From an uncultured Phascolarctobacterium sp. (lineage in GTDB: Bacteria; Bacillota; Negativicutes; Acidaminococcales; Acidaminococcaceae), in the NCBI RefSeq assembly GCF_902463975.1, contig NZ_CABQHJ010000003.1, forward strand, positions 38,854 to 102,853: DNA of 64,000 nt. Reading direction: 5' to 3'. A program made the position numbers and the translations under genes. Positions within the stretch are counted from its first letter, which is position 1, and each line of letters opens with the position of its first letter. Shown here in pieces: positions 531 through 58,500 of the stretch. The notes below the pieces were generated by a model. It was not told where the DNA came from. It ran no database searches and was given only the letters and a program-made list of their open reading frames with translations.

Positions 531-790
531 GAAAAAACAAAAAAGCACCCGCGTCCCCGTAACTTAAATGTTACAGGGACGGAGTGCATACAGCTCGGAC
601 TCCGCGGTTCCACCCTGCTTGACTGCAATTATCTGCAGCCCGCCTCAATCAATATACTATTACAGCTCCAAAGCGCCTTCATCTGCATTTGCCGCCTTGC
701 ACTGTCACGGCTCGCTGAGTTTGCAGATTACTACTCTTCTTCTTAGCTTAACTGTTAGTATATAAAATACAGCGCTGTTTGTCAAGAGTT
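531..790 (-). promoter_or_regulatory. glycine T-box leader for glyQ (promoter, specifier region, T-box sequence, terminator/antiterminator)
   Basis: On the minus strand: promoter TTGACA (780-785) - 17 nt - TATACT (757-762). The conserved T-box AGGGUGGAACCGCGG is the complement of 602-616. A 12-bp terminator stem (complement of 552-563 with 570-581) is followed by UUUUUUGUUUUUU. A GGC triplet (gAAGGCGcu) in the leader is a plausible Gly specifier. Confidence 0.75.
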
Positions 791-8848: not shown

Positions 8849-9493
8849 CTATTTCAGGCTGGCAATAGCAGCAGCAGTATCCTCAGCGCCATAAACATAG
8901 GAGCCTGCTACCAATACGTTGGCACCGGCAGCCTTCACCAGCTTGGAGGTTTCGGCATTAACGCCGCCGTCAACCTGAATATCTACGTTCAGGCCACGCT
9001 CGGTAATCATCGCATGCAGGCGCTCAATCTTCGGCACTACGCCTTCAATAAAGCTTTGGCCGCCAAAGCCGGGGTTTACGGTCATCAGCAGTACCATGTC
9101 AACGTAAGGCAGAATTTCTTCTACCGTACTCAGGCTGGTAACAGGGTTCAGTGCAACGCCAGCCTTCATGCCCTCAGCCTTGATCTGCTGGATGCAGCGG
9201 TGCAGGTGCTTGGTGGTTTCAACGTGTACAACAATCTGGTCTGCACCGGCAGCCTTAAAGTCGGCAATGTATTTTTCCGGATTTTCTACCATCAGATGGC
9301 AGTCGAAAAACAGGTCGGTTACCTTACGGATTTTTTTCACTACAGGAGCACCAAAGGTCAGGTTAGGTACAAACTGGCCGTCCATTACATCGATGTGTAC
9401 CCAGTCGGCACCGGCAGCTTCAATTTTTTTGATTTCGTCCGCCAGATATGCAAAATCGGCAGATAAAATTGATGGAGCAACTTTAATCATCAT
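8849..9493 (-). CDS. rpe: ribulose-phosphate 3-epimerase
   Basis: MMIKVAPSILSADFAYLADEIKKIEAAGADWVHIDVMDGQFVPNLTFG... is a full-length Rpe match. Confidence 0.95.
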   Translation of the reverse strand: MMIKVAPSILSADFAYLADEIKKIEAAGADWVHIDVMDGQFVPNLTFGAPVVKKIRKVTDLFFDCHLMVENPEKYIADFKAAGADQIVVHVETTKHLHRCIQQIKAEGMKAGVALNPVTSLSTVEEILPYVDMVLLMTVNPGFGGQSFIEGVVPKIERLHAMITERGLNVDIQVDGGVNAETSKLVKAAGANVLVAGSYVYGAEDTAAAIASLK

Positions 9494-10389
9494 TTTCTTC
9501 CCTCTTTCTCTTGCAGGAGTTTTACCTCTGCTAACATTGTCAAATATGATTCATAACGGCTGGCAGAAATCCTTCCTGCAGCCACAGCATCCTTTACACC
9601 GCAGACAGGCTCGTGCGTATGCGTGCAGGGACAGAACCTGCAGCCTGCCTCATAATCGGCAAACTCACGGAAGGAGGCCAGCACCATTTCAGATGTCAGT
9701 CCCTCCAGCAGCAGATTGCCGAAGCCCGGAGTGTCCGCAATATAGCCTTCGTCGAATGGCAGCAGCTGTGCATAGCGTGTAGTATGCTTGCCGCGGCCGA
9801 TTTTTACGCTAACCTCGCCCGTGCGCAGGTCCACGCTGCTGTCGATAGCATTAATTGTAGAAGATTTGCCTACGCCCGAAGGTCCGCCAAAGGCGCAGAT
9901 TTTACCACGCAGTCGCTCTCGCAAAGCCTCCACGCCGGTGCCGTTCTGCGCCGACAGAGTATAAACCTCGTAGCCGATAGGCTCATAAACTGCCTTCACC
10001 TGCTCAATCAGGCCCGCAGGAGCGTTATCCTCTTTATTGAGCACCAAGATTGCAGGAATTTTCGCCAGCTCTGCCAACGCCAGCAGCTTATCTGCCAGCA
10101 GGAAGCTGAAGTCCGGCGCAGCACAGGCAAAGGCTGCCACAAACAAATCCAGATTAGCCAGCGTAGGACGCGGCAGAAAATTTCTGCGCGGCAGCACGCC
10201 GGTAATCATCCCCTCGCGCTTTTCGCTGCTACTTACCTCAAAGCCGGCAATATCGCCTGTTGCCAGCGAAAAACGGTTTTTCTTCATTTTTCCCTTTACC
10301 TTGCAGGTATATGGCTCGCTTTCGCCCTCAACCTTAAGGTAATAATAGCCGTTATAATTTTTTAGGACTCTTCCCTGCAGCTCTGCCAT
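9490..10389 (-). CDS. rsgA: ribosome small-subunit-dependent GTPase A
   Basis: Motifs LVLNKED, GPSGVGKSS and a C-terminal zinc finger (C.FC.C.H.EP.C.V) are present. It sits between prkC and rpe, as in Bacillus. Confidence 0.9.
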   Translation of the reverse strand: MAELQGRVLKNYNGYYYLKVEGESEPYTCKVKGKMKKNRFSLATGDIAGFEVSSSEKREGMITGVLPRRNFLPRPTLANLDLFVAAFACAAPDFSFLLADKLLALAELAKIPAILVLNKEDNAPAGLIEQVKAVYEPIGYEVYTLSAQNGTGVEALRERLRGKICAFGGPSGVGKSSTINAIDSSVDLRTGEVSVKIGRGKHTTRYAQLLPFDEGYIADTPGFGNLLLEGLTSEMVLASFREFADYEAGCRFCPCTHTHEPVCGVKDAVAAGRISASRYESYLTMLAEVKLLQEKEGRK

Positions 10390-12356: not shown

Positions 12357-13095
12357 TACAGCTTTCCTCCCCCTGCGTAGTTAAATCAATCAGAATCAGG
12401 GACACATTATCGCGTCCGCCGTTGTCCAGGCTTTGCTCCAGCAGTTTGTCAGCAGCCTGCTCCAAATCACTGCAGCCTATAAGCTGACTGATTTCAGCTG
12501 CACGCAGCATATCCGACAGACCGTCGCTGCAAAGCAGCAGTCTGTCACACTCCTGCAGGCTAAAGCTGAAGAAGTCAGCCTGCACTGTTTCCTCTACCCC
12601 CAGGGCTTGCAGCAAAATATGGCGCTGCGGATGTACAAAGGCTTCCTCCTCCGTGATTTTTCCCTGCTCAAGCAAATCTGCTACCAGAGTATGGTCATGT
12701 GTCAGCTGCTCCAGCTTGCCGTCGCGGAACAGATACAGTCTGCTGTCGCCTACATGGCAGCAGTAGCCGTGGCCATCGCCCGGCAGATAAAGCGCCGTCA
12801 TCGTTGTTCCCATACCGGAATAGCTTTCGTTGCTTACTGCCATTTTAAAGACATGTATATTAGCCTTATCAAAGGCCTCCAACATAACCTTACGGATATT
12901 CTGTTCCTCCTGCTCATGGCGCAGGCTGTGTGTTGCAGCCTCAAAGGCTTTGATAGTAGACCTGCTGGCGATTTCGCCTGCCGCATAGCCTCCCATGCCG
13001 TCGGCAACGGCAAAAAGATACGGCTCGCGCACCAGCAGCGCATCTTCATTATTCTCTCTGACCAGGCCCACATGGGTTCTGCTGATTACCTGCAT
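12349..13095 (-). CDS. prpC: PP2C-family Ser/Thr phosphatase
   Basis: MQVISRTHVGLVRENNEDA...ADGMGG...DNVSLILID carries the PP2C motifs. It is translationally coupled to prkC. Confidence 0.9.
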   Translation of the reverse strand: MQVISRTHVGLVRENNEDALLVREPYLFAVADGMGGYAAGEIASRSTIKAFEAATHSLRHEQEEQNIRKVMLEAFDKANIHVFKMAVSNESYSGMGTTMTALYLPGDGHGYCCHVGDSRLYLFRDGKLEQLTHDHTLVADLLEQGKITEEEAFVHPQRHILLQALGVEETVQADFFSFSLQECDRLLLCSDGLSDMLRAAEISQLIGCSDLEQAADKLLEQSLDNGGRDNVSLILIDLTTQGEESCNG

Positions 13096-14150
13096 TATTT
13101 TTGCTCCTGTTCCTTGGCAAATTTAGCCCGCAGCTGACCGCAGGCTGCATCAATATCCTTCCCCATCTCCTTACGAACGGTAGCGTTAATCCTGTTTTTC
13201 TGCAGGATACGCAAAAAGCGTTCTACTGCCGCCTTGGACGGACGCTCAAAGCCTTGCTCCGGTACCGGGTTAGCCGGTATCAGATTAACGGATGCCTGCT
13301 TATAGCGCAGGTAATTGCTCAAAAGCTCCGCGTCCTGCGGACTGTCATTTTTTCCCTTCAAAAGAATATATTCATATGTTATCTGCCTGCCGCTGGCCTT
13401 GCTGTAGCTTTCGGCAGCAGTCAGCACATCTACAAAGGGATAGCCCTTGTTGACAGGCATCAGCGCCGTACGCAGCTCGTTTTTTACCGCGTGCAGTGAA
13501 ATTGCCAGATTTATCGGCTTGCCCTGCTCCTCCAGGCGTTTGATGCCCGGAATAATGCCGCAGGTGGAAAGCGTCATGTTGCGGTAGCTCATGTTGCAGG
13601 TGTCCTCGCGGTGCAAAAAGTCCAGCGCCTGCAAAACGCTGTCAAAGTTCAGCATCGGCTCACCGCTGCCCATAACCACCACTCTGCTCACCATCGCGCC
13701 CTGCTCACGCAGGCGCTCGTTGAACAGATAAACCTGAGCCACGATTTCTGCTGCCGTCAGGTTGCGTACAGCGCCCTTCAGGCCGCTGGCGCAGAAGGCG
13801 CAGTGCATATCGCAGCCGACCTGGCTGGAAACGCACACGCTGTAGCCGTAATCATGGTGCATCAGAACCGTTTCTACCGAATTTCCGTCCGGCAAGCCCA
13901 AAAGCAGCTTGCTCGTCATGCCGTCGGAGGAATTCTGCTCACGCAAAATTTTCAGACTGCGCGGCAGCACGGTAAATTTTTCCTGCAGCACGGCAATATC
14001 AGCCTTGCTCAGGTTGTGCATAGAGGCAAAATCAAAGACCGACTTTTGGTACAGCCATTGAAACACCTGCTTGGCACGGAACTTTTTCAGACCTGCCGCC
14101 ACAAATAATTCTTGTAATTCTTCTATTGGTAAAGCAAAAATATCTTGCAT
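13095..14150 (-). CDS. rlmN: 23S rRNA/tRNA (adenine-C2)-methyltransferase, radical SAM
   Basis: The GCDMHCAFCASG CxxxCxxC motif and full-length RlmN similarity. Confidence 0.9.
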   Translation of the reverse strand: MQDIFALPIEELQELFVAAGLKKFRAKQVFQWLYQKSVFDFASMHNLSKADIAVLQEKFTVLPRSLKILREQNSSDGMTSKLLLGLPDGNSVETVLMHHDYGYSVCVSSQVGCDMHCAFCASGLKGAVRNLTAAEIVAQVYLFNERLREQGAMVSRVVVMGSGEPMLNFDSVLQALDFLHREDTCNMSYRNMTLSTCGIIPGIKRLEEQGKPINLAISLHAVKNELRTALMPVNKGYPFVDVLTAAESYSKASGRQITYEYILLKGKNDSPQDAELLSNYLRYKQASVNLIPANPVPEQGFERPSKAAVERFLRILQKNRINATVRKEMGKDIDAACGQLRAKFAKEQEQK

Positions 14151-14165
14151 TCTCTTACCTCTATA

Positions 14166-15548
14166 TTACTGCTTTTTCATCAGCTTACAGATATAAAAGC
14201 CGTCGATGCCGTCATTCTGCGGCAGAAGCTGCAGCTCCTGTACCTGCTCACCCGTCAGCGGATGCGTAAATTCCACACGCTGCCATTCGGGATGCTGCGT
14301 TAAAAACTCTTCTACCAGATAATGGTTTTCACTCTGCTCAATCGTGCAGGTGCTGTAAACCATGGTACCGCCATCCTTCACGTACTGTGCGGCATTCTTT
14401 AAAATTGCCAGCTGCAGCGGCGGGAACAGCTTCAAATCCTTGCGCTGCTTGCGCCAGCGTGCTTCCGCACGGCGGCGCAGTACACCCAAACCGGAGCAGG
14501 GTGCATCAACCAAAACTCTGTCAAACGCGCCCAGCCATTCGCTGCGCAGCTGCAGAGCATCGTTCTGCAGTGCTTTGACGCTCTTCATACCCAGACGGGC
14601 AGCGTTTTCGGCAATCAGCTCCAGCTTGTGCTCGTGGATATCGCAGGCGATAACCTCGCCCTTATCCTGCATAAGCTGTGCCACGTGTGTTGCCTTGCCG
14701 CCGGGAGCGCTGCACATATCCAGCACGCGCATTCCGGGCTGCGGCGCCAGCACCGGCGCTACCAGCATAGAGCTTTCGTCCTGAATGTAAAAATGCTGCG
14801 GCAGTGCCGCCAAAAGTGTATGCAGCGACGGCAGATGCTCTGCCACAATTCCGTAGAGACTCCATTCGGAAGCACGCACCTGCGCACCCATTTCCGTCAA
14901 ATCCGCCACCAGCTTGTCGCGCGTAGTCACCAGCGTATTGGCACGCAGGCACACCGGCGCAGCCGTGTTATCAAATGCCAGCAGGCGTTCGGTGCCGCCG
15001 CGTCCCCACGGTCCCAGCCAGCGTTTCACCAGCCAGCGCGGATGGTAATATTTCAGCGACAGATAATCGGCATCCTGCTTTTCGGCATCGGGCAGGACGA
15101 ACGCACCTGCCTCCTGCTTGCGCAGCAGACCACGCAGAACGCCGTTGACAAACTTGGCGCTGCCCTCATGGCTCACCGAGCGTGCCAGCTTCACAGCCTC
15201 GTTTACTGCCGCCGACGCAGGAATGCGCGTCATATACAGCAGCTGATAGGTGCTGATGCGCAGTATCGCTAAAATATCACCGGCCACCTTATCCAGCGGA
15301 CGGCTGACGCACTGCGCCAGATACCAGTCCAGCGTACCGCTGGCCTTTACAGTGCCGTAGACCAGCTCCGTTGCCAGCCTTCTGTCAAGGTCGCTAAGTC
15401 TGCTGCCACGCAGATACTGGTTCAGCGCGATATTCGTATAAGCGCCGTCCTCCAGCACCATACGCACCAAAAGCGCCGCTGCTCCGCGAGCGCTCTCAGG
15501 ATAATTTGCTTTTTGTTCCTTCCGCATGCTTTGTTTCTTCCTCATCAT
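14166..15548 (-). CDS. rsmB: 16S rRNA (cytosine967-C5)-methyltransferase
   Basis: NusB-like N-terminus plus a SAM methyltransferase with the PCSG motif (DAPCSGLGV). The start may be an internal Met at 15527. Confidence 0.9.
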   Translation of the reverse strand: MMRKKQSMRKEQKANYPESARGAAALLVRMVLEDGAYTNIALNQYLRGSRLSDLDRRLATELVYGTVKASGTLDWYLAQCVSRPLDKVAGDILAILRISTYQLLYMTRIPASAAVNEAVKLARSVSHEGSAKFVNGVLRGLLRKQEAGAFVLPDAEKQDADYLSLKYYHPRWLVKRWLGPWGRGGTERLLAFDNTAAPVCLRANTLVTTRDKLVADLTEMGAQVRASEWSLYGIVAEHLPSLHTLLAALPQHFYIQDESSMLVAPVLAPQPGMRVLDMCSAPGGKATHVAQLMQDKGEVIACDIHEHKLELIAENAARLGMKSVKALQNDALQLRSEWLGAFDRVLVDAPCSGLGVLRRRAEARWRKQRKDLKLFPPLQLAILKNAAQYVKDGGTMVYSTCTIEQSENHYLVEEFLTQHPEWQRVEFTHPLTGEQVQELQLLPQNDGIDGFYICKLMKKQ

Positions 15549-16311
15549 CTTCCATAAATGCTAAAATTGCTGCTTCCAGCTTATCAATATCTACCCGCGT
15601 ATTAAAGCAGGGACCAAAGGGACGCTCGTTTAAAACGCCCAACACCGGCAGCGGGAACACGTCCTGAATGCCGCTGGTCAGATCACGCTCGCAGGCTACG
15701 GCCACAATAGCCTTTGGCCTTGCCTGCTTAACCATCTGCCTTGCCAGGGTACCGCCGGTAGCTACGGCAAAATGGCAGCCATATTTGTGCGCCAACCCCA
15801 GCATAGCGCCTACACTGCAGCGTCCGCACTGACGGCAGTTTTCTACGTTACGGGTTATCTTATGTACGCAGGTATCCAGCTGGATACAATGCGGTGTTAA
15901 AATCATAATTCGATTGGCAGGCACCTTCACCTTATGCTGCAGTACCAGATTATTGCTGACCTCGATAAAGGACTGCTCGATGCGGTCACGGGGAATGTTG
16001 AACAAGCGTCCCAGTACTACCGCAAAGGGGAAAAGAATATTAATTGCCTTCCACGCCCAAAAATACAAAATCTTAAGTACCGGTATTCCCAACAGCGCCA
16101 TAACAATTCCCAGAACGCCGCTGAGCATCGCCAACACTATAAGTACGCCGAAAAAGCCGAAAATTATCGGCAGAAACCGGCTGATTTCATAAAGTCCCGG
16201 AAAGGTTACCTTCCAGACAACATAAAACATCAACGCACCTAATACGGCGCTGATGGAGGTCAGAGCCATAAATATACGTTTTTTGGGCTTAAATACACTA
16301 TCTTCGTTCAT
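15496..16311 (-). CDS. DUF116-family membrane protein (conserved between fmt and rsmB in Clostridia-type genomes)
   Basis: Several N-terminal TM helices and a Cys-rich C-terminus (CRQCGRCS...). Its 3' end overlaps the annotated rsmB start. Confidence 0.6.
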   Translation of the reverse strand: MNEDSVFKPKKRIFMALTSISAVLGALMFYVVWKVTFPGLYEISRFLPIIFGFFGVLIVLAMLSGVLGIVMALLGIPVLKILYFWAWKAINILFPFAVVLGRLFNIPRDRIEQSFIEVSNNLVLQHKVKVPANRIMILTPHCIQLDTCVHKITRNVENCRQCGRCSVGAMLGLAHKYGCHFAVATGGTLARQMVKQARPKAIVAVACERDLTSGIQDVFPLPVLGVLNERPFGPCFNTRVDIDKLEAAILAFMEDDEEETKHAEGTKSKLS

Positions 16312-16343
16312 TAAAAGATTACTCCTTCAAATCACAGCCTGCT

Positions 16344-17279
16344 TCAGGCAAGCAGGTCGCCCTCCTGTACGCCGCGGCCGTTCAGGAAAACCTGCGCCGG
16401 CATACGTTTTTTGGATTCGGGCTGTACCTCGGTGATTTCCAGTACGCCCTCACCGCAAGCAACAAAGAAGCTGTGCTTGCCAGTTTCGATAACGGTACCG
16501 GCAGCAGCAGTGCTGCTTTTGCCGGTCATTTTGCTGCCCCAGATTTTCAGGCTCTTGCCGTTCGGCAGCTTGGTAAAGGTGCTAGGTGCAGGGTTAAAGC
16601 CGCGGATAAGGTTGTGTACCTCCTGCGCCGTTTTGCTCCAGTCAATATGCTCCATGCTGCGGTCCAAAAGCGTTGCATAGGTAGCCTGCTCGTTATCCTG
16701 CGGTTCCGCAACGGCAGTACCTGCCGCAATCTTGTCGATAACCTGCAGCAGCAGCGCCGCACCTTGCTCACGCAGAGCGTCATGCAGCTCGCCCATCGTG
16801 GTATTTTCTGCAATAGGCACTACTACCTTGTCCAGCATAGCGCCGGTATCCATACCGATATCCATCTGCATAATTGTTACGCCCGATTCCTTTTCGCCCT
16901 TGATGATGGTATACTGAATCGGCGCCGCACCGCGATACTTCGGCAGCAGCGAAGCGTGTACGTTGATGCAGCCGTATTTCGGCAGCTCCAGAATTTCCTT
17001 GCTCAAGAACTGGCCGAAGGCAGCTACGACAATCAGCTCCGGCTGCAGCTCGTGCAGCAGCTCAACAAATTCAGGGGTTTTTACCTTTTGCGGCTGGTAA
17101 ACAGTCAATCCCTGCTCCAGCGCATATTCCTTAACAGGTGTCTGCAGCAGCTTGTTGCCGCGTCCCTTCGGACGGTCCGGTTGAGTTACTACCGCCAGAA
17201 TTTCATGCTTACCGCTTTCGCACAGCGCCTGCAGGCTACCGACTGCGAAATCCGGTGTTCCCATAAATACTATACGCAT
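16344..17279 (-). CDS. fmt: methionyl-tRNA formyltransferase
   Basis: MRIVFMGTPDFAV... and full-length Fmt similarity. Confidence 0.95.
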   Translation of the reverse strand: MRIVFMGTPDFAVGSLQALCESGKHEILAVVTQPDRPKGRGNKLLQTPVKEYALEQGLTVYQPQKVKTPEFVELLHELQPELIVVAAFGQFLSKEILELPKYGCINVHASLLPKYRGAAPIQYTIIKGEKESGVTIMQMDIGMDTGAMLDKVVVPIAENTTMGELHDALREQGAALLLQVIDKIAAGTAVAEPQDNEQATYATLLDRSMEHIDWSKTAQEVHNLIRGFNPAPSTFTKLPNGKSLKIWGSKMTGKSSTAAAGTVIETGKHSFFVACGEGVLEITEVQPESKKRMPAQVFLNGRGVQEGDLLA

Positions 17280-23349: not shown

Positions 23350-23460
23350 GGCCAACCTCCTGCAAACATACTTGTAGCTTATTATAACATAAATCAAAGA
23401 GAAGATAAAACGTCAAAGCCTCCACAAGCGCAAGCATAAGCAAATTCAAACCATACTCAA

Positions 23461-23500
23461 AAGCGCAAAACAGCGCCCCGATAGCCATCGGGACGCTGCG
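23461..23500 (-). terminator. terminator after the TIM-barrel gene
   Basis: CAGCGCCCCGAT...ATCGGGACGCTG stem, followed on the minus strand by UUUUGCGCUUUUG. Confidence 0.55.
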
Positions 23501-23516: not shown

Positions 23517-24473
23517 TTATCTGGCAACAGAAAGCTGCTGCTGCATCAGCGGAATCATTTCCTCGATAGTTTCATATGCCAGCTCATGATTTACATACTG
23601 CGGCTGAACGCACTGCAGAATCTGCTTAGCTGCCGTGGTAGTAAAAGGCTTATGCTGGTCAATCGCCGCAATATGACGCCAAATAACTTCCGCACTTGAA
23701 TCAGCCGGCACCTTGCGTTCAAAGCTGCGCAAATACTTGCCGGAAAGCGAGCAGGAAAGATGCACGCCCTTAATCAGCTCAGCATACGGACCGAGCTTGT
23801 CCACCGTGCGGCAGACAAAATCCGCTGCCTCCGCCTCTGTGCGCAGACGCGGATTCGTATTCATCAGATGACCGGTATCAAGCATAATGCCGACGTTTTT
23901 GCGCTCAATGCGCTCAAAGAAAAACTTCACCTTGCGCGCATCCGTCAGGCGCAGACCGGGCCACCACAAATTCTCAAACAGCACCGTTACATTGGCAGGA
24001 ATCTCATCCGCCACTGCATTGAAAACATCTGCCGAAGCAGCCAATACCTCACGGTCATCATAATGGAAATCAAAGGTAAAGATTGTTTCTGTATCAGCCT
24101 CTGCTACATGCCATACCAAATACTCCGGCTTCTGCGAAATAGCAGCGCAGATATTGCGGCGGATAACCGCCAGCCATTCATCACAGCTCATGGCTGTCTT
24201 AAAATATGTCTGGCGTTCGTGAATACTGCGGAACTGCTGCTGCAGGCGTTTAGCCTTTCGCAGCCAGAAGTCCATCCAGTACGGCCAATAATTCAAATGT
24301 GCGCCAAAGGTTAAATCCTTGTAATCAGGGAAAGCTCCCGGCTCTCTGTAAACAAACTGTTCAATACCGTCGACCCCCAGCTGCTGCACTAAATCAGCCA
24401 AGGTCATCCCCTTACGCTTCAGCTCATCTTCATACCAATCAATCGGACAATAGTTAATAAGATGCTTAGTCAT
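23517..24473 (-). CDS. xylose-isomerase-like TIM-barrel protein (sugar-phosphate isomerase/epimerase / AP-endonuclease-2 fold), function unknown; cobalamin-riboswitch controlled
   Basis: GIMLDTGHL and general similarity to the PF01261 fold. It lies directly downstream of a cobalamin riboswitch on the same strand. Confidence 0.6.
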   Translation of the reverse strand: MTKHLINYCPIDWYEDELKRKGMTLADLVQQLGVDGIEQFVYREPGAFPDYKDLTFGAHLNYWPYWMDFWLRKAKRLQQQFRSIHERQTYFKTAMSCDEWLAVIRRNICAAISQKPEYLVWHVAEADTETIFTFDFHYDDREVLAASADVFNAVADEIPANVTVLFENLWWPGLRLTDARKVKFFFERIERKNVGIMLDTGHLMNTNPRLRTEAEAADFVCRTVDKLGPYAELIKGVHLSCSLSGKYLRSFERKVPADSSAEVIWRHIAAIDQHKPFTTTAAKQILQCVQPQYVNHELAYETIEEMIPLMQQQLSVAR

Positions 24474-24560
24474 TTCTCACCCTTCTTTGCTACATACTGC
24501 ACGCTCTTAACGTAAACCTTGCTTCACCTGTGCTACCGGCAAATAGCTTGGAATCCTTGG

Positions 24561-24830
24561 TTCATAAAAAAACTGCGGCGGTAACGCTGCAGTCATAATT
24601 TAGCTCACACAAGCAGCACTACTCGAATACTAAAGATGGTTTTACCATCCTTCCTTTCACCTGTACATCGCAAGCTTGCGGAAAAAACTTTTGGGCATAG
24701 GCACTCTGACTAAGCTCATCGCCAGGGCAGCATCTTGTGAGGATATGCGCTGCCAAGCTCACATTACAGTTGCGGTACAGTACCAGGTTCACACTGGTTT
24801 CCCTTCTGCTCAAAACATATTAAGTTTTTA
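24561..24830 (-). promoter_or_regulatory. cobalamin (AdoCbl-type) riboswitch with intrinsic terminator expression platform
   Basis: Minus-strand RNA AAGGGAAACCAGUGUGAACCUGGUACUGUACCGCAACUGUAAUGUGAG aligns almost base-for-base with the E. coli btuB core AGGGAAUCCAGUGCGAAUCUGGAGCUGACGCGCAGCGGUAAGG. A B12-box-like UGCUGCCCUGGCGAUGAGCUUAGUCAG follows. The terminator is CUGCAGCG-uuac-CGCCGCAG UUUUUUU (complement of 24561-24600). Confidence 0.75.
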
Positions 24831-24895
24831 TTGTCTTGCTTTCTTTATCTGACGAAAGCTGTGTAATAGTAATATCTACTATTTATAGTATAATT

Positions 24896-24924
24896 AGTAT
24901 ATCATCAATCAAAAATTTTGGCAA
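24896..24924 (-). promoter_or_regulatory. putative promoter for the riboswitch transcript (TTGCCA-17-TATACT)
   Basis: -35 is the complement of 24919-24924 and -10 is the complement of 24896-24901. It sits between the ABC-operon terminator and the aptamer. Confidence 0.4.
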
Positions 24925-24954
24925 GAGAGATATGAAAATTTTTCCGTATCCATA

Positions 24955-24999
24955 CTGCAGAATAATAAACTCCCGCAAGCACGATGCTTTCGGGAGTTT
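24955..24999 (-). terminator. terminator after the ABC importer operon
   Basis: AAACTCCCG...CGGGAGTTT 9-bp stem, followed on the minus strand by UUAUUAUUCUG. Confidence 0.55.
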
Positions 25000-25061
25000 G
25001 CATTTGAATATGCACCATAACGCAGACAATGGTTTAGCGACAGTTTTAATAAAACAGGACT

Positions 25062-25871
25062 TTAGCGACAGACTGTAATTGGTACAAGGGCGGGAAGCCC
25101 ATTACTGCACGCAAACTCATCTGCCTGCACGCGGAACACGTCCGCCAGCAGCTTGGACGTAACAATTTCCTTAGGCTCACCGCTGACTACTAAGCGTCCC
25201 GCCTTGATAACGGCAACGTAATCGGCGTACTGAATGGCATGGTTCAAATCATGGATAACCATAACAACAGTAAGTCCCAGCTCCTTGTTGAGCTTATCAA
25301 GCAGCTGCATAACCTCCAGCTGGTGACAGATATCAAGATATGTCGTGGGCTCATCGAGCAGCAGCACCTGCGGTCTTTGTGCCAGCGCCATTGCTATCCA
25401 TGCGCGCTGACGCTCGCCGCCGCTCAACGTGTGCAGAAGGCGGTGGCTCATCGACGTCATATTGGTCTGCTCCAGTGCCCAGGCAACGTGCTGTGCATCA
25501 TCCTTATCACCGCGCCCTAAGAAGCTACGATGCGGGAAGCGTCCCATTTCAACCAAATCCTGCACCGTCAAATCCGTAGGCGCAACCGGTGACTGCGTCA
25601 AAATCGCCAGGCAGCGGGCAAATTCACGGTGCGACAGGCTATGAATATCCTTGCCCAAAAAGCTAATGCTGCCCTTGGCGCACGGCAGAATGCGGGCAAT
25701 CGCCTTCAGCGTTGTGCTTTTGCCGCAGCCGTTGGGGCCGATAATAGCGGTAATCTTACCCTCAGGAATTGCCAGCGACAAATCATGGATGATTGTTTTT
25801 TTGTTAATTGCTATATCAATATGCGTTGCCTCTAAAACAGCTTTAAAGGGCGCTGCATTATTTTGTGTCAT
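25062..25871 (-). CDS. ABC transporter ATP-binding protein, iron-siderophore/cobalamin type (FecE/FhuC/BtuD-like)
   Basis: Walker A GPNGCGKST, signature LSGGERQR, Walker B LLLDEP. Confidence 0.9.
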   Translation of the reverse strand: MTQNNAAPFKAVLEATHIDIAINKKTIIHDLSLAIPEGKITAIIGPNGCGKSTTLKAIARILPCAKGSISFLGKDIHSLSHREFARCLAILTQSPVAPTDLTVQDLVEMGRFPHRSFLGRGDKDDAQHVAWALEQTNMTSMSHRLLHTLSGGERQRAWIAMALAQRPQVLLLDEPTTYLDICHQLEVMQLLDKLNKELGLTVVMVIHDLNHAIQYADYVAVIKAGRLVVSGEPKEIVTSKLLADVFRVQADEFACSNGLPALVPITVCR

Positions 25872-26893
25872 CAGATTTCCCTCCTTAACAGGAATAAGAA
25901 GAAGGGCGCGCCCAAAAAGGCCATAATAATACCAACAGGCAGTTCAATCGGCGCAAAAATTACACGCGCAAAGGTATCACTGAGCGTAACAATGGCAATG
26001 CCCAAAAGTGCGGAGGCAGGCAGCAGAAAGCGGTAGTCGCTGCCTATCAGCAGTCGCGCCGCATGCGGCACCACAAGGCCGACAAAGCCCAGCAGGCCAA
26101 CAACGCTGACAGCGCTGGCTGCGAGCAAAGCTGCAATAGCCGTAAGGATAATGCGCGTTACCTCAACATTGACACCAAGACCGCGCGCCATCTCATCACC
26201 CAGCTGCAGGATATTCAAATAAGCGGCACTGGCAAGCGCCAGAATCAGGCCGATAACAGCATACGGCAAAATAATATTTACATGCGGCCAGCTGCGTGCG
26301 GCAAGACCGCCTACCATCCACATTAAAGCGCCATGCACTCTGTCACTGTAAAAAATCATCAGGCCGCTGATGCCTGCACCCAAAAAGGCAGATACCGCAA
26401 CACCGGCCAAAATAATACGCACCGGCTTGATGCCGTTTTTCCACGCCAGAATATAAATGCAGACAGCAGCCAGCATCGCACCGATGAAGGCAACAGGCGT
26501 AATCAGATATTCCATCGCCGGGAACAAAATCATAATCACAACACCTGCCAGTCCTGCGCCGGAGCTGATGCCGATAATATGCGGGTCTGCCAACGGATTA
26601 CGCATAATCGCCTGCAGAATCGCACCGGAAAGCGACAGGTTGATGCCGACCAAGGCACCGACGATGGTGCGCGGCATACGGATGTTCCAAATAATCTGAC
26701 TGCGCGGATCATCACCGGGATTAAGCAGAATATCGGTAATCTCCTTAATGCTGATAATGCTGGAGCCTTTTGTTAAGCTCAAAAAGCTGCCCAATAGTGC
26801 CAAGAACAAAAATATCACAAGAATAGTAATACGCCATTTAGTACGGCCGATACCAAAATGCTCCGTCTGCTCTGCAGACTGCTTATTTTCCAT
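25871..26893 (-). CDS. ABC transporter permease, FecCD/BtuC family
   Basis: ~10 TM helices and FecCD-family similarity. Confidence 0.9.
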   Translation of the reverse strand: MENKQSAEQTEHFGIGRTKWRITILVIFLFLALLGSFLSLTKGSSIISIKEITDILLNPGDDPRSQIIWNIRMPRTIVGALVGINLSLSGAILQAIMRNPLADPHIIGISSGAGLAGVVIMILFPAMEYLITPVAFIGAMLAAVCIYILAWKNGIKPVRIILAGVAVSAFLGAGISGLMIFYSDRVHGALMWMVGGLAARSWPHVNIILPYAVIGLILALASAAYLNILQLGDEMARGLGVNVEVTRIILTAIAALLAASAVSVVGLLGFVGLVVPHAARLLIGSDYRFLLPASALLGIAIVTLSDTFARVIFAPIELPVGIIMAFLGAPFFLFLLRREI

Positions 26894-27842
26894 TAGTAAA
26901 GACCTCCGGATAAACCTGCTGTGCCATAAACTTTACAGCCTCAGGATAGCGCAGGCCGGGGTTAATCAAAAACAGCTTTTCCGGCAGCACATATACTCTG
27001 CCTGCTTTTACAGCCGGCAGACTGTTCCATGCGGGGTTATTTTTAAAGTCGGTGCGCAGACGGTTTTCAATTTCCTCAGGCTTACCCATAGAGGTAATAA
27101 AGATAATTTCCGGGTTCTGCTCAACCAGTGTTTCCATGCTGTAAGGAGTTTTATTGGATTTTCCCTTGAGCGCTGCAGCAGCAACGTTTTCAAAGTCCAG
27201 GATATCGCTTACACAGCCGGCAATGCTGTGCGAGCCTTCTACCGTAACGGCGCTGGCTGTTGCATGCATAATAACGATGCGTTTCTTTTCCTTAGGAATC
27301 TTACTGGTAACGGCGGCAACCTGTTTATCAAGCAGATCATTTTCCTTTTGGGCCTTATCCTGCGTACCATAAATATCGCCCAAGGTTTTGATTGTACCCT
27401 TTACATCCTCAAAGGTTTGGGTATCAAACTCCACTACGTTGATTTTGTTGGATTGCAGCATGGGAATAAATTTATCATGCTGATTTTTGCTGGCCAGAAC
27501 CAGATCAGGCTTCAGGCCGACAAGCGCTTCCATATTAATATTGTAGACCATGCCCACCTCCGGCACAGACTTCATAGATTCCGGAATTTTGCCTACCTTG
27601 GAGCTGGCGCGACCGACTACGGTGCCGCCGACAGCCTCAATCATACTCAAATATGAAGGGCTGAGGCTTACCACTCTTTCAGGCTTTTTGGCAAGCGAAA
27701 CCTGTCTGCCTGCAGCATCGGTAAGCTGCAGATAAGCCTTGTCACCGCCAGTCTGCGTTCCTACACCGCCGCAACCGGCAGCAAGCAGCATAGCCGCACA
27801 TAATAGACCACAAGCAATTTTTTTCAAGATCATGTTAATCAC
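26883..27842 (-). CDS. periplasmic binding protein, TroA-like cluster (BtuF/FhuD family), lipoprotein
   Basis: Lipobox LLAAGCGG and class III PBP similarity. Confidence 0.85.
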   Translation of the reverse strand: MINMILKKIACGLLCAAMLLAAGCGGVGTQTGGDKAYLQLTDAAGRQVSLAKKPERVVSLSPSYLSMIEAVGGTVVGRASSKVGKIPESMKSVPEVGMVYNINMEALVGLKPDLVLASKNQHDKFIPMLQSNKINVVEFDTQTFEDVKGTIKTLGDIYGTQDKAQKENDLLDKQVAAVTSKIPKEKKRIVIMHATASAVTVEGSHSIAGCVSDILDFENVAAAALKGKSNKTPYSMETLVEQNPEIIFITSMGKPEEIENRLRTDFKNNPAWNSLPAVKAGRVYVLPEKLFLINPGLRYPEAVKFMAQQVYPEVFTNGK

Positions 27843-28031
27843 CTCATACTCATCTTACATTACCCAAGCCCAAGGCTTTGGCAATATATATAACTCTCTG
27901 ATAAAAAAAGCTTAATAATATCGCCCTCATAATAGCACAAATCAGAAGTGTAGTCAATGAAAGTTGCTAAGAAGCGCTCATAATAGTATAATAAAATAAT
28001 AAGCTTGTTATAACAAAGGAGTAGAAATATT

Positions 28032-28229
28032 ATGGAAATCAATGCAATGATTAACCGCATAAATGCATTAGCCAAAAAGAAAAAAACCTCCGGCCTGACC
28101 CCGGAGGAACTGGCAGAGCAAAAGGAGCTGTACAAGGAATATCTGTCCAACATCCGCAGCCAGCTGAAGGCACAGCTCGATAACATCGAGGTAGTCGACG
28201 AGCTGCCGGATAAAAAACAGCTGCACTGA
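28032..28229 (+). CDS. UPF0291/DUF896 small protein (YnzC-like)
   Basis: MEINAMINRINALAKKKKTSGLTPEELAEQKELYKEYLSNIRSQLK... resembles B. subtilis YnzC. AAGGAG lies upstream. Confidence 0.75.
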   Translation: MEINAMINRINALAKKKKTSGLTPEELAEQKELYKEYLSNIRSQLKAQLDNIEVVDELPDKKQLH

Positions 28230-28882
28230 TGGCTGCTATCCTGTCGCCATCCATGCTGGCCTACGAGGACGATTTTCTGCTGATTATCGATAAGCCTGCA
28301 GGCATGCTGGTACACCCCACCGTCAGCGAGCGAGGCACAACGCTCTACGATTATGTAAAGGCATATTATGAAGCCAACGGTATTACCGCCGGTATTCATC
28401 CAGTATCACGCTTAGACCGCAACACCTCCGGCCTGGTTATTTTCGCCAAGGAGCCTGTTGTACAGCACTGGCTGAGCCAGCAGCAGGTTGAAAAAGAATA
28501 TCTGGCACTGGCCTGCGGACGCTTTGACTGCAGCGAAGGTATTATCGAAGCACCTATTGCCCGCAAGGACGGCAGTATCATCGAACGCTGCGTTGATTAC
28601 GAACGCGGCAAATACGCCAAAACAGCCTATGAGGTTTTAGCAGCCTACAGCAGCTGCACGCTGCTCAAGGTTCGTCTTTTTACCGGACGCACGCACCAGA
28701 TACGTGTTCACCTTGCTTCCATCGGGCATCCGCTCGTAAACGACAATCTTTACGGCACTCCCGGCCCCCAAGCGCGCCATGCGCTGCATGCCTACCGTCT
28801 GGCCTTCAAGCATCCGGTAAGCGATGTATTTTTAGAAATTACCCGCGCTTTGCCGGAGGATTTACAGAAACTTCTGTACTAA
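28229..28882 (+). CDS. RluA-family pseudouridine synthase (short form without S4 domain)
   Basis: LLIIDKPAGMLVHPT and HRLDRNTSGLVIFAK motifs. The TGATG stop/start overlaps the upstream gene. Confidence 0.85.
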   Translation: MAAILSPSMLAYEDDFLLIIDKPAGMLVHPTVSERGTTLYDYVKAYYEANGITAGIHPVSRLDRNTSGLVIFAKEPVVQHWLSQQQVEKEYLALACGRFDCSEGIIEAPIARKDGSIIERCVDYERGKYAKTAYEVLAAYSSCTLLKVRLFTGRTHQIRVHLASIGHPLVNDNLYGTPGPQARHALHAYRLAFKHPVSDVFLEITRALPEDLQKLLY

Positions 28883-53681: not shown

Positions 53682-54521
53682 TCATTTTACAGGTATTGAT
53701 AATTTAAAAACATATTCATTCTTGTCATTAGTAATCCAATAGTCCTTTTCAAAAGAAACTATTGTATCACCATTTATCTCAAGTTCATTACGTTCAATAA
53801 ATTGAAAACACTTTTTTATCCATGCTTCACAACAATGATGATAGTTACCCTTTCCATATATCGAAACATAGCATTGATTTTTTGTCTTATGATTAACCAG
53901 TTTTCGAAAATCATCAATACAATTATAATTATCCATAGCAAAGAACCTGCTTACAGGACTACATTGAAACTTTTTGGTGTTATCCTGACTCAAAAACCAA
54001 CCTGTAGTCAAATCACAGTTATTAAGCCTAAAAAGATTTTTCAGGAAATTTAACCTTATAATAAGGTTATTTTTATCCCCATCCATCGAAGATAGATTTT
54101 GAGAAACATACATTTCATATTCAGGCAGTTGTTCCAATAAAACTCTATCCAATATCAGATTTCTTATGTGGTCCGTTTTCCTAAGAATAGTTTGCACACT
54201 TAGCATTTTTGCCATAAGTTCTTTCTGTTCAAGGATTAATTCTTCTTCTTTTTTCCTCAAAAGATTACTTACGATGTTTTCATCACGGTAATGCAAAAAC
54301 TCACGTATATCCTTTATAGAAAAACCTAATCGTCTCATGCAAACAATCATTTCTAACACATGATGTTCCGCTAAAGAATAATACGCATAATTATTATCTT
54401 GGTTTCTTTTAGCAGGCTTTAACAGCTTTTCTTTTTCATAGTAACTCAATGTTTGCTTAGAAATATTAGCAAGCTTTGCAATTTCGCCAGATGTAAATGT
54501 ATTTCTAATTGATTTTACCAT
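53682..54521 (-). CDS. MerR-family transcriptional regulator with C-terminal effector-binding (GyrI-like/BmrR-type) domain
   Basis: FTSGEIAKLANISKQTLSYYEKEKLL is a MerR HTH. About 180 aa of C-terminal domain follow. Confidence 0.75.
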   Translation of the reverse strand: MVKSIRNTFTSGEIAKLANISKQTLSYYEKEKLLKPAKRNQDNNYAYYSLAEHHVLEMIVCMRRLGFSIKDIREFLHYRDENIVSNLLRKKEEELILEQKELMAKMLSVQTILRKTDHIRNLILDRVLLEQLPEYEMYVSQNLSSMDGDKNNLIIRLNFLKNLFRLNNCDLTTGWFLSQDNTKKFQCSPVSRFFAMDNYNCIDDFRKLVNHKTKNQCYVSIYGKGNYHHCCEAWIKKCFQFIERNELEINGDTIVSFEKDYWITNDKNEYVFKLSIPVK

Positions 54522-54532
54522 GGTACCCCTTC

Positions 54533-55528
54533 TTAATAACCCTTTAACAATTTTTCTTCCTTCATATCAAAAGTAGGTCCATAAATACTATTATACAATC
54601 CCTTGATAGCATAAACACAGTTCTGCGAATTTGAATAAATATACCTATCAGGTATCGCTATTACTCTTTTCATTCCTTTCAGATGTTGAAAAGCAGGATC
54701 TTCTAAAAATTCTTTTCTAAACTGAACATCTTTGGGTTCTTCATATTCTCTACCTGCAGAAACAAGAAAAACATCAGGATTTGAGGCTATGATAGATTCT
54801 TTGGTTACGGTTTCGCCATAATGTATTCCCTGCATGCTAATTGCATTTCTTATTCCGGCATGCTTACAAATATCATCATAGACACAGCCTATTCCTCCAT
54901 ACTGTCTCATTCTGGATGCTAACATAACAACCGGCTGTTCAGCTTGTTTTAATTGAATTTTATCACGAACTTCTGCTAGCTGTCTATCCATTTCACGTAT
55001 TAATTTATCACCGTTTTCTTCCTTACCCATAGCCTGAGACATTAGTCTTATGTTATACCTGATATCATCAATGCTATTGGGACCTCTACAGACAACTGTC
55101 TTTATACCCATTGCTCTATAAGATTCAATAACATTTTTATCTAAAGTATCAGGTACAAAGATAACCTGAGGATTCATCGCCATAATTGACTCTTCACCGA
55201 GTTGCTTAAATAACCTATATTCTGTCTTTATATTCTTTGTTTCCTCAGCAATATACGAAATTGCTGAATCCTTGTCAAGGTAATTTTTAGCTACTAAATA
55301 ATCGGCAGGCGCAATTCCTAAAAGAATAGTGTCATACGTAAGATTATAACACAAAACTCTCGTAGGCTTAGCATCGAAAATAGTTTTATATCCTAAATTA
55401 TCAATAACGAAATAACTATCTTGTCTGTTCGTCTGATTAATACCTACGAAACTTACAATGATTAAGCAACTCAAAACTAGTATAACAATGGCGAAAAATA
55501 TTCTATATATTTTATTATCACTATTCAT
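54533..55528 (-). CDS. periplasmic binding protein, FecB/HmuT-like (class III), N-terminal membrane anchor
   Basis: TroA-like fold similarity. Its start overlaps the CobN-like gene end by 8 nt. Confidence 0.75.
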   Translation of the reverse strand: MNSDNKIYRIFFAIVILVLSCLIIVSFVGINQTNRQDSYFVIDNLGYKTIFDAKPTRVLCYNLTYDTILLGIAPADYLVAKNYLDKDSAISYIAEETKNIKTEYRLFKQLGEESIMAMNPQVIFVPDTLDKNVIESYRAMGIKTVVCRGPNSIDDIRYNIRLMSQAMGKEENGDKLIREMDRQLAEVRDKIQLKQAEQPVVMLASRMRQYGGIGCVYDDICKHAGIRNAISMQGIHYGETVTKESIIASNPDVFLVSAGREYEEPKDVQFRKEFLEDPAFQHLKGMKRVIAIPDRYIYSNSQNCVYAIKGLYNSIYGPTFDMKEEKLLKGY

Positions 55529-58500
55529 CGCTCAATTCCTCTAAATCACCCTCAATTTCTAAAAACTCTTGTAGTAGAGCACTCTCAATTTCTTTAGGCG
55601 TATTCCATAAACCTCTTTGTTTTGCTTCTAACAAAACAGTACACATTTTTCTTAAAGCCCATGGGTTTACTTTTTTTAACCATGCATTGACATCTTTTGA
55701 AAGGACATACATTTTAGTCAAATCATTATACATCCAATCCTCAATAACATTGCTGGTTGCATCCCAAGCAAAGCTATGACTTACAATATTACATAAATCA
55801 GCTGCACCCTTATATCCATGTTTCTTCATTCCCTGAATAAATTTAGGATTCAGTACTTGAGATAAGTATAACTGTTTCATTTCCTCTGATAAACTTTGAA
55901 CACTAACAGCATCCTTTTTAGACAAATTCCCACAAAATGACTTTGGAACTTTTCCTGATAAACTACGTACTGCAGCAATCATGCCACCATGAAACGCATT
56001 ATAATCATCTGATTCTAACATTGTTGTCTCGTAATGATCTTCATTTTTTAGCGTTAAATCAACTTTGCTGAGCTGTTTAGAGAAAACTTCCGGCAGAAAT
56101 TGACCTTTAATGTTCTTACCATAAGCATAACTTCCCCAAGATACATATATCTCTCTTAAATCATCAATACTTTGCCAGTTTCTGCTTTCTATTGCCAAAT
56201 TAACACCAGCACCATAAGTTCCAGGTGCACTACCAAAAATCCTGCATTGCAAATTATCGTAGTTTGTCATTTCTAATTCATTTGAGTCCTCCATTATATG
56301 CTTACGCGGGTAATTAACATCACCATCCTCATCTAATTTCATAATACATTTAATACATTCATCCAAGTATTCTACAGTAGGATACAACGAATCTCTATAC
56401 ATACCGCTTATTCGCGCTATAACATCTATACGTGGTCTTTTCAAAACGTCTAACGGGATAACCTTAAAACCACTTATTCTCCCATTAGTATTCCATTCTG
56501 GCGAAACACCTAAAAGCGCCATTGCCTGAGCTATATCGCAGCCTTTGGTACGCATATTGGTGCCTGACCAAAATATCATAGCAATACGTTCGGGATATCT
56601 TCCTTCTTCCTCAATATACTGTTGTATAACCTGATTTGCTAATTCCTGGCCAATAATCCATGCTGACTTGGAAGGTAGTAACCTTGGATCCACACCATAA
56701 AAATTTTTACCACTTGGAAGACAATCCAGCATACCTGTTGAAGGGGCACCGGATAAGCCACTTTCAATATAGCAACCATCTAAACCTTTAAGTATATTTG
56801 TTATTTCTTCATCAGTATGGCTCAACTTATCCAGAACAATTTCTTTAAGTTCATTGTTACCCTGAGTAAAACTATTAATCAGATTTCTTAAATCCGCTTC
56901 AGAACCTAAATCACCTAATATATGCAAACCTGTTCTACATTGATTTGAAGATATTTTCTCAAGATAAGCATGTAAATTCTCCATCTGCTCACAAAAATCA
57001 ATTTCATTTTCCTTATTACAAAAACATTTCATATCTTCCTTAAGCAGTAATTCAGATATTACTTGCTCTAATTGCGAAACTGTAGAACTTTGTAATCTAT
57101 AGGCTTCTAAATACTGCTCTACCAAATCATATAGTTCCCGCATTTCACCATATAATCCGGCTTCTTCACAAGGAGCCGGTAAATGATCAACTAATACTGC
57201 AGCGCCACGCCTTTTCGCCTGCAGTCCTTCGCATGTAATAGAAATTAAATACGGATATATATTAGGAAGACTATCTATAGCCAAATAAGGATAACTAGCT
57301 CTGCATAAGCCAGTGCTTTTACCAGGTAACCATTCAAGACTACCATGAGTACCAAGATGTATTACTGCATCAGCTTTAAATACTTCCACCAACCATCTAT
57401 AAAAAGCCAAATAGTAATGTGTAGGCGGTATATCTCCATTGTGAAAACTTTTTTGAATATCACCAAAAGCAATTCTTGGCGGTTGGACTCCTATGAATAT
57501 ATTTCCTTGTTTAAACCCTGCAATTTTAAATTCTTCTTCTGTATCAGTAAGAAACGAATTTCCGGGCATTTCACCCCAATTATTTTTTATATGGTTTCTA
57601 GTGTCCACGCCTAAATTTTCATACCATTGTTTATAACTACCAACAGGATATTTACCACATGGCTCAAGATCTGATTTAAAAAATTCAACCTCATTAGTAA
57701 AACTAGAAAGCAGTTTTTCGGCAAGCCATCCTGATTCCTTAGGTAATTCATCAGTTTTATAGCCAGCTTTTTGAAGGTTTTCTAAAATCACTTCTCCGCT
57801 GCGAAGAGAATCCAAACCCATAGCAGTTCCGATTGTAGCATTTCCTGCAGGATAATTATGAAAAATAAGAGCTATCCTTTTATCTTTATTTTGCTTGAGT
57901 TTCAACTGTGCCCAACAATAAGCTCTTTTTGCCATTAGTTTTATATTATCATAAATTGGCACCATAGTTACCAGAGTACCATCTTTTTTTTGTCCAGCTA
58001 ATGGTACACCATGTACAACTCCATCGAATTCCGGCATAATAATATTTGCTTGAAGCTCGTTTTCATTTAAACCATAACTAGACGCTTCCCAGCTTTCTAC
58101 ATCTTGCAAAAGTATTTCACCTTGAAGTATCGGTATATTTAGTTTCTTCAATAAATCTTTATCTTCAATATCTCTGCCAACTGTCAGAGAAAACCATAAG
58201 CAATTTATTAATACTTGTGGTATAAATGCACCTTTTAAACAGGCTAATTCTAAAAAATTATTTTCAAAACCTGGTATATTTCTCTCTCTATCACGATTCC
58301 AATGAGAAAAAATAGGCAACACATTACAGTCCAATTGTCGTAATTCATTAATCAAGCTATCTATGTATGAAGTATGTCCCCAAGCCCAATGTTCCCTAGG
58401 AAAGTTAATCGCTACAGTGGGCAAAGAAGGATTATAATACTTCTCATAAAAAGCTTCTTTCGTCAAAACATTATCCGCTTCCGGTATGTAAATTCCAGAC

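Follow-up and report, generated by a model that had tools for sequence, protein, structure and literature searches.

We examined a stretch of 64,000 nucleotides (nt) from an uncultured Phascolarctobacterium sp. (contig NZ_CABQHJ010000003.1, positions 38,854 to 102,853), hereafter the window, whose minus strand encodes a protein of 318 amino acids (aa) with a triosephosphate isomerase (TIM)-barrel fold of the PF01261 superfamily. The gene lies behind a leader that resembles a cobalamin (vitamin B12) riboswitch, and the protein is 97-99% identical in named Phascolarctobacterium succinatutens assemblies, which assigns the window to that species. Our analysis suggests that an adenosylcobalamin (AdoCbl)-class riboswitch controls an enzyme of an undescribed PF01261 family, most likely a corrinoid nucleotide-loop phosphodiesterase that would catalyse a CbiR-like reaction while belonging to a separate family. 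We hold this reading, taken whole, to be slightly better than an even bet.

Along the minus strand, from 24996 to 23459, the locus comprises the terminator of an ATP-binding cassette (ABC) importer operon, a promoter, the B12 aptamer, a second terminator ~55 nt past the aptamer, a 5′ untranslated region (UTR) of ~95 nt between that terminator and the gene, a ribosome-binding site (RBS), the open reading frame (ORF) and a terminator at the gene end (Table 1). A pattern scan missed the importer-operon terminator because of one stem mismatch, and the gene-end terminator fell outside the scan's T-run rule. The promoter is the sole site of its kind in 24300-25150, and since shuffled sequences average 2.0 such sites it counts as a consensus match only. 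The priA gene follows with its own TTGACG...TATAAT promoter; because of this promoter and the gene-end terminator, the TIM-barrel unit is monocistronic. The original prediction had described a discrete regulatory unit with its own promoter downstream of the ABC-operon terminator and with an intrinsic terminator, a ~90-nt 5′ UTR and an RBS after the aptamer, and all of these elements are in place. A side observation concerns the downstream flank: in four other P. succinatutens-type genomes (L012, L014, L016 and L048; L numbers denote the compared loci) a TonB-dependent receptor gene and a BtuF-like gene, not priA, follow the TIM gene, ~1.5 kb downstream. This difference is a strain-level insertion or deletion beside the riboswitch unit.

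Table 1. Features of the TIM-barrel locus, of two uptake clusters in the window and of selected compared loci. Positions are those of the window unless a locus is named.
Feature	Position	Strand	Sequence or detail	Basis or context
Peripla_BP_2 substrate-binding protein (SBP)	26883-27842	-		adjacent importer
FecCD permease	25871-26893	-		adjacent importer
ABC ATPase	25062-25871	-		adjacent importer
Intrinsic terminator of ABC importer operon	24961-24996	-	CUCCCGAAAGCA-UCG-UGCUUGCGGGAG then UUUAUUAUU	sequence inspection
Sigma-70-type promoter	24924..24896	-	TTGCCA, 17-nt spacer, TATACT, extended TG upstream	10/12 consensus matches
Cobalamin (AdoCbl-type) aptamer	24648-24828	-		RF01482 36.0 bits; R1 covariance model match 24651-24825
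P13-like hairpin	24659-24675	-	GCUUG-CGAUGUA-CAGGU	directly 3′ of aptamer
Candidate antiterminator strand	24613-24622	-	GUAGUGCUGC	complementary to GCAGCGUUAC (24581-24590) in terminator 5′ arm and loop
Leader intrinsic terminator (expression platform)	24566-24594	-	CUGCAGCG-UUAC-CGCCGCAG + U7; arms also delimited as GACUGCAGCG-UUAC-CGCCGCAGUU + U-run	folding, leader comparison
RBS	24476-24485	-	GAAGGGUGAG; upstream of ATG at 24473	sequence inspection
318-aa PF01261 TIM-barrel ORF	23517-24473	-		candidate corrinoid nucleotide-loop phosphodiesterase
Gene-end intrinsic terminator	23459-23498	-	12-bp stem CAGCGUCCCGAU/AUCGGGGCGCUG, GGCU loop, then UUUUGCGCUUUU	sequence inspection
TonB-dependent receptor	58971-61112	-		second uptake cluster
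CobN/Mg-chelatase-like protein	55521-58943	-	1140 aa	second uptake cluster
Peripla_BP_2	54533-55528	-		second uptake cluster
Nitrogenase-like genes, L073 (P. faecium)	9087-9911, 12688-13989			side observation
Nitrogenase-like genes, L006 (Pectinatus)	13646-16993			side observation
CobN + ChlI/ChlD-like set, L004	9182-16128			side observation
CobN + ChlI/ChlD-like set, L090	1-6958			side observation
CobN + ChlI/ChlD-like set, L091	1-5232			side observation

The aptamer consists of an outer stem (24807-24815/24689-24697), a GGGAA junction, a P4-like hairpin, a CCGC loop and a B12-box region, and its P6 stem (ACUGU/AGUCAG) carries a 49-nt extension. Among the models of Rfam clan CL00101 (RF00174 Cobalamin, RF01482 AdoCbl and RF01689 AdoCbl-II), the best match is RF01482 at 36.0 bits, below its gathering score of 50 (E=8.9e-5 when 901 nt were searched and 6.3e-3 over the full window); RF00174 went unreported for this aptamer at its 31.5-bit gathering score. 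The leader had been called an "almost textbook" B12 aptamer, a description that suits the core and overstates the match of the whole. We ascribe the low score to a reduced periphery with one outer stem, the P6 insertion and a divergent 3′ hairpin.

Relatives of the leader score higher. Directly upstream of orthologous TIM genes, RF01482 scores 56.6 bits at L021, 50.3 bits at L019 and 48.1 bits at L020, and RF00174 scores 105.7 bits at L063, 40.7 bits at L040 and 38.7 bits at L027. Leader identity is 88-98% across P. succinatutens-type genomes, and in relatives whose TIM protein is ~65-75% identical the alignable part of the leader is the aptamer core only. As a separate observation, an Acidaminococcaceae chromosome (OY782827; L064, 6084-6563) carries two tandem RF00174 riboswitches (105.1 and 100.8 bits) directly upstream of its TIM homologue.

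We wrote out a canonical cobalamin-type structure on an alignment of 14 aptamers, in which 46 columns, the core motifs among them, are invariant. The proposed structure leaves 91.5% of cells paired, versus 34-40% after a shift of the 3′ partners by 1-3 columns, and both partners vary in 24 of its 40 pairs, versus 8-14 in the shifted controls; none of 500 shuffles equalled the observed pairing or covariation values. R1, a covariance model derived from the 14 aligned aptamers, picked up 42 aptamers across 86 sources, and 41 distinct aptamers show compensatory changes at 30 of 36 pairs in an alignment that, being fitted to the R1 model, is biased towards the proposed structure. The P13-like helix is paired throughout the 14 sequences (100%), with two pairs that vary on both sides. 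Two sets of alternatives were discarded along the way: the RNAalifold helices 24-27/147-150 and 53-55/126-128 were judged spurious and replaced by canonical pairing, and an alternative loop pairing CGCAA/UUGCG was dropped, as changes in L033 favour the P13 stem.

A sub-threshold Rfam score had been named beforehand as grounds for giving up the riboswitch, and a scan with RF00174 and RF01482 formally returned just that. We nevertheless judge the aptamer to be real because homologous leaders exceed the curated thresholds, with up to 105.7 bits at L063, and because covariation is strong; the conserved terminator described below also speaks for a cobalamin-class riboswitch, as originally proposed. 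A genuine, if low-scoring, AdoCbl-class riboswitch in the 5′ leader (24566-24828, minus strand) is thus a well-supported prediction, and its ligand specificity is likewise predicted from sequence. Comparative evidence, it appears, can recover real riboswitches that score under Rfam thresholds.

Of 19 related leaders, 17 keep the terminator hairpin and U-tract, and the stem shows compensatory changes. This conservation points to transcription attenuation in which the bound state turns expression off. In folds of transcripts that end before the 3′ arm of the terminator, the candidate antiterminator strand pairs with its complement at 24581-24590, and from these models we infer an antiterminator mechanism. 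When the cobamide cofactor is sufficient, the ligand-bound aptamer would permit the terminator to form and transcription would end before the gene; when the cofactor is scarce, read-through would lead to expression of a single cytoplasmic enzyme.

The protein scores 37.9 bits against PF01261 (gathering score 31.1), so that score and fold both place it in the superfamily, and it matches no NCBIfam model at E<=0.001. Structure prediction bore out the proposed fold: an AlphaFold model is confident (predicted local distance difference test 95, predicted TM-score 0.92), and the best Protein Data Bank (PDB) matches in Foldseek are a ketose 3-epimerase and Escherichia coli endonuclease IV (Endo IV), at a TM-score of ~0.55 and 13-16% identity. 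Neither the single protein nor a profile gave a significant match in sequence searches of the PDB. Nine residues (H59, H122, E167, D199, H202, H238, D272, H274 and E297) are at least 90% conserved, first among 25 close members of the family and then among 119 diverse members that are 22-47% identical to the window protein.

Profile alignment with hhalign relates the family to Endo IV (probability 94%, E=1.1e-7) and places H122, E167, D199, H202 and H238 in register with Endo IV H109, E145, D179, H182 and H216. We take the ligands of the trinuclear site in E. coli Endo IV to be H69, H109, E145, D179, H182, H216, D229, H231 and E261, an order that the nine family residues share. Among the 119 members the only recurrent weak NCBIfam matches are to Endo IV (34 members, best E 6.4e-9) and to the CbiR model NF041277 (21 members, best E 4.6e-7), all of them far under the cutoffs; the protein P0087 reaches 16.3 bits against NF041277, whose cutoff is 105. 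By sequence and model the protein is a PF01261 TIM barrel with a putative Endo IV-like multi-metal site, and the most likely chemistry at such a site is phosphodiester hydrolysis. Clustering at 50% identity leaves 534 representatives of the family, in Negativicutes, Clostridia, Fusobacteriota and uncultured lineages. Where source annotations name them at all, the label is "TIM barrel protein" or "hypothetical protein", and a literature search that left most subscription journals outside its reach found no description of the family or of its link to B12.

The genomic context of the family is a recurrent one. A scan of one genome per species gave 308 loci, of which the best 80 were studied. A B12 aptamer lies upstream in 33 of the 80, within 600 nt of the gene in 26 cases and at the operon head in seven, so the riboswitch-gene pairing that had been proposed as a check recurs across genomes. 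Same-strand genes for BtuF-like proteins, FecCD permeases, ATPases, TonB receptors, CbiZ or CobN occur within 7 kb at 54 loci, and the gene directly adjacent to or overlapping the TIM gene is BtuF-like at 22 loci and cbiZ at ten. Representative arrangements include the order SBP-FecCD-CobN-CbiZ-TIM in Succiniclasticum-type contigs; an RF00174 riboswitch (95.6 bits) followed by TonB-dependent receptor, ATPase, TIM, CbiZ and BtuF genes in Pectinatus; and riboswitch, TonB-dependent receptor, TIM, BtuF, NifH-like and BtuFCD genes in the type strain of P. faecium.

The association extends to distant members that are ~26-34% identical to the window protein (L089-L091). At L091 an RF00174 riboswitch (53.1 bits) heads a run of methyltransferase, DUF7676, TIM, BtuFCD, BtuR, CbiZ, CbiB and CobD-type genes; at L090 two BtuF genes, CobN and TIM lie beside ExbBD/TonB, CbiA and BtuR; and in Agathobacter (L089) an energy-coupling factor (ECF) transporter precedes the TIM gene. 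Judged by these neighbourhoods, the TIM family belongs, time and again, to B12-riboswitch regulons and to operons for corrinoid uptake and salvage. A permissive tblastn search against plasmids for an annotated CbiR turned up only two further family members, both in unannotated chromosome-sized records.

Three further patterns emerged from the compared loci. Several genomes encode two TIM-family paralogues (L032/L081, L034/L087, L029/L088, L026/L082, L047/L052 and L063/L071), one typically with a BtuF-like gene (~65% identity to the window protein) and the other directly after CbiZ (~42-45%), a pattern that suggests sub-functionalisation. Nitrogenase-like genes (Fer4_NifH NifH-type and Oxidored_nitro NifD/K-type) occur in or beside riboswitch-controlled corrinoid transport operons. 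CobN genes together with ChlI/ChlD-like AAA+/VWA genes, a three-part chelatase/dechelatase set, recur beside TIM and BtuF/CbiZ genes in several lineages (Table 1).

The genes immediately upstream of the TIM unit in the window (25062-27842, minus strand) are predicted to form a BtuFCD/Fec-type importer. They had been described as having no riboswitch, and neither Rfam at E<=1 nor the R1 model finds a second cobalamin clan match within the window. The importer leader spans only ~190 nt (27843-28031) because real plus-strand genes, DUF896 (28032-28229) and an RluA-type pseudouridine synthase (28229-28882), fill 28032-28882, and it is therefore too short for an aptamer plus a promoter. Given these plus-strand genes, a 179-aa minus-strand ORF (27860-28399) that looks as if it opened the ABC operon is spurious.

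The original prediction, with its regulatory unit for the TIM gene and not for the transporter, implied that the two are functionally separate, which is contradicted by other Acidaminococcaceae (L067, L068 and L069). There, 55%-identical SBP orthologues lie in operons of SBP, permease, ATPase, permease and TIM genes, each headed by an RF00174 riboswitch (50.7-57.6 bits). On the strength of this conserved synteny the importer is predicted to be of the B12-regulon type and functionally tied to the TIM-barrel gene, and the ancestral linkage would have been split in P. succinatutens, where the riboswitch belongs to the enzyme gene alone and the importer is free of riboswitch control.

Taken together, these data are the basis on which we favour a corrinoid nucleotide-loop phosphodiesterase. 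The enzyme would hydrolyse the nucleotide-loop phosphodiester of imported corrinoids supplied by the neighbouring BtuFCD-type importer, and the corrin part could then be rebuilt into the cobamide that the cell needs. An enzyme that dismantles complete cobamides would be expected to be off once the cell has ample supplies of the proper cofactor; such silencing at cofactor abundance may explain why the enzyme has a private riboswitch and the importer has none. Both the substrate and the bond cleaved are predicted. The original prediction had offered either a cobamide salvage or remodelling activity or a B12-independent alternative enzyme: the former gains from relatives that adjoin or overlap BtuF-like, CbiZ, BtuC/D, TonB-receptor and CobN genes and from the recurrent riboswitches, while the latter found no support. 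Its premise that a sugar-isomerase/AP-endonuclease fold (AP, apurinic/apyrimidinic) is foreign to the B12 regulon also falls, because CbiR belongs to the PF01261 superfamily (PMC7733943). The broader proposal, that this widespread family is a second, CbiR-independent class of cobamide nucleotide-loop phosphodiesterase that lets Phascolarctobacterium remodel foreign cobamides and is silenced by a riboswitch, seems to us evenly poised.

Several observations weigh against this interpretation. At gathering thresholds, an Rfam scan of the window returns one tRNA and no riboswitch, the aptamer lying under every gathering score. The kissing loop expected between L5 and L13 is weakly supported: pairing of the P13 loop CG(AU) with the L5 loop ACCG is conceivable, and the putative pairs are 80% paired in the 14 sequences; two of them are invariant, and the one that covaries (ACCG/CGGU versus AUCG/CGAU) is unpaired in 9 of 14, the window itself having a C·A mismatch. 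Equilibrium folding puts the terminator at a probability of 0.985 both when the aptamer is enforced and when it is not; aptamer state and terminator are uncoupled in these folds, so that the switching step is a prediction. H59, D272, H274 and E297 were matched to Endo IV ligands by motif order only, and the window protein has no match to the CbiR model NF041277 even at E<=10. The flanking DNA examined contains no riboswitch at 47 of the 80 loci, ten of these negatives being agreed by Rfam, and the counts are not phylogenetically independent, since ~10 loci are P. succinatutens-like. Finally, the family members of Fusobacterium vincentii and Acetoanaerobium noterae, at 27-30% identity, sit in unrelated neighbourhoods.

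The frequency of CbiZ is a further difficulty and leads to the one close rival, namely that the enzyme acts in corrinoid salvage at a different step, on another substrate or bond than CbiR. It might convert complete cobamides to cobinamide and alpha-ribazole-phosphate, with CbiZ acting afterwards, or it might recycle the aminopropanol-phosphate-riboside fragment that CbiZ releases. CbiZ is directly adjacent, often overlapping, at ten of the 80 loci and lies within 7 kb at 14; L091 unites the TIM gene with BtuR, CbiZ, CbiB and a CobD-type gene; and the window protein is not a CbiR orthologue. Against this, at many loci, that of the window and those of its closest relatives among them, the TIM gene stands by itself or is accompanied by a transporter gene, and no CbiZ was found in the DNA examined around them, that around the window gene included. 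We regard a different step as improbable, yet as deserving clearly more weight than any of the readings that follow.

The other alternatives are unlikely. A divergent Endo IV, that is, a DNA-repair AP endonuclease whose linkage to B12 is incidental, would agree with Endo IV being the nearest characterised relative by profile and among the top structural matches, and also with priA downstream in the window and an HhH-GPD gene near L073. In Acetoanaerobium noterae (L093, 5810-11735) a 27%-identical member lies between a RecQ helicase gene and an OGG/HhH-GPD glycosylase gene, with no corrinoid genes nearby, and some branches of the family may indeed have a DNA-repair role. The window protein, however, scores 17.3 bits (E=0.0023) against the Endo IV model TIGR00587, whose cutoff is 129.65; terminators and a promoter lie between the TIM gene and priA; and in dozens of genomes the family's reading frame overlaps BtuF-like and CbiZ genes at start and stop codons, besides the B12 riboswitches at 33 of 80 loci. 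A repair enzyme at the window locus thus seems very doubtful.

We give equally little credence to a role in haem or siderophore iron uptake, in which the TIM barrel would process a haem- or siderophore-derived compound. The window SBP does score best against the haem protein model IsdE (145 bits, below cutoff) and the ATPase against FecE, and CobN/HmuS-like and ChlID-like genes occur at several loci. Cobalamin riboswitches nonetheless head the orthologous transporter operons, and the neighbours CbiZ, BtuR and CbiB are corrinoid-specific. The fold name alone would suggest a sugar or sugar-phosphate isomerase or epimerase, or a B12-independent isozyme. Epimerases typically have a four-residue, single-metal set, not nine conserved His/Asp/Glu residues; no NCBIfam sugar-enzyme model does better than E ~0.05; and sugar-metabolism neighbours do not recur at the 80 loci or the distant ones, where corrinoid genes do, which leaves this identity with scant likelihood. 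That the RNA is a decayed, non-functional remnant and the gene constitutive or silent is hardly credible either: the sub-threshold Rfam score, a GGGAAA where most close relatives have GGAAAA, the putative kissing-loop mismatch and an outer-stem A·C mismatch would suit decay, and set against them are a leader conserved as described above, of which the core alone remains alignable at ~65-75% protein identity, helices preserved by compensatory changes and a conserved terminator.

Two observations elsewhere in the window stand apart from this argument. A second tetrapyrrole-type uptake cluster (53682-61112, minus strand; Table 1) also includes a 279-aa ORF that received no identification; it could serve haem (HmuS-like) or corrinoid uptake, and neither Rfam (E<=1) nor R1 detects a cobalamin riboswitch there despite a 550-nt upstream gap (61113-61661). 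At 572-753 (minus strand) lies a sub-threshold T-box leader (RF00230, 68 bits where the gathering score is 93; E=1.3e-12); related Phascolarctobacterium loci carry a T-box above threshold (97 bits at L001, 101 bits at L025).

The B12 analogues that a gut bacterium can use, and those that it passes on to others, depend on cobamide remodelling, and to our knowledge the only known remodellers are CbiZ, some CobS variants and CbiR. Phascolarctobacterium species are major succinate consumers of the human gut, and their propionate pathway relies on the B12-dependent methylmalonyl-CoA mutase. If the TIM family consists of corrinoid hydrolases, hundreds of "TIM barrel protein" clusters would join the predicted remodellers, genome-based prediction of cobamide dependence would improve, and abundant succinate-to-propionate converters of the gut such as Phascolarctobacterium would be expected to remodel foreign cobamides.

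The closest functional precedent is CbiR of Akkermansia muciniphila (Amuc_1679), a cobamide-remodelling phosphodiesterase of the PF01261 superfamily (Mok et al. 2020, PMC7733943). The window protein shares with it the PF01261/AP endonuclease 2 superfamily, conserved metal-type His/Asp/Glu residues and a gene beside cobamide salvage or transport genes, and nucleotide-loop hydrolysis is the function that best fits the context of the family. It differs in length, at ~320 aa against the 249 positions of NF041277, the curated model that stood in for CbiR sequences in our comparison, and the complete homologue table of PMC7733943 lists none of the checked taxa that carry the TIM family. From Endo IV (Nfo), a trinuclear-zinc AP endonuclease, it is set apart by 12-16% identity, extra N-terminal and beta7-beta8 insertions and a context of corrinoid uptake, not DNA repair. 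CbiZ, the adenosylcobinamide amidohydrolase (PF01955), is the commonest enzymatic neighbour of the TIM family and resembles it as a corrinoid salvage and remodelling enzyme found with BtuFCD genes under B12 riboswitches, whereas its fold is unrelated and it cleaves an amide bond rather than a phosphodiester.

Known cobalamin riboswitches, in turn, share with the window RNA the GGGAA junction, a GGUG-type hairpin, the CCGC-ACUGU segment, the AGUCAG...GCC B12-box region, a P6 extension and a P13-like hairpin, as well as a place upstream of a B12-related gene, within its 5′ leader, and an intrinsic terminator after the aptamer. The window RNA has a single 9-bp outer stem in place of the P1/P2 arrangement of RF00174, carries the 49-nt P6 insertion and agrees poorly with the 3′ hairpin of RF01482. 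It further differs from known cobalamin riboswitches in controlling one enzyme gene while the adjacent importer goes without a riboswitch.

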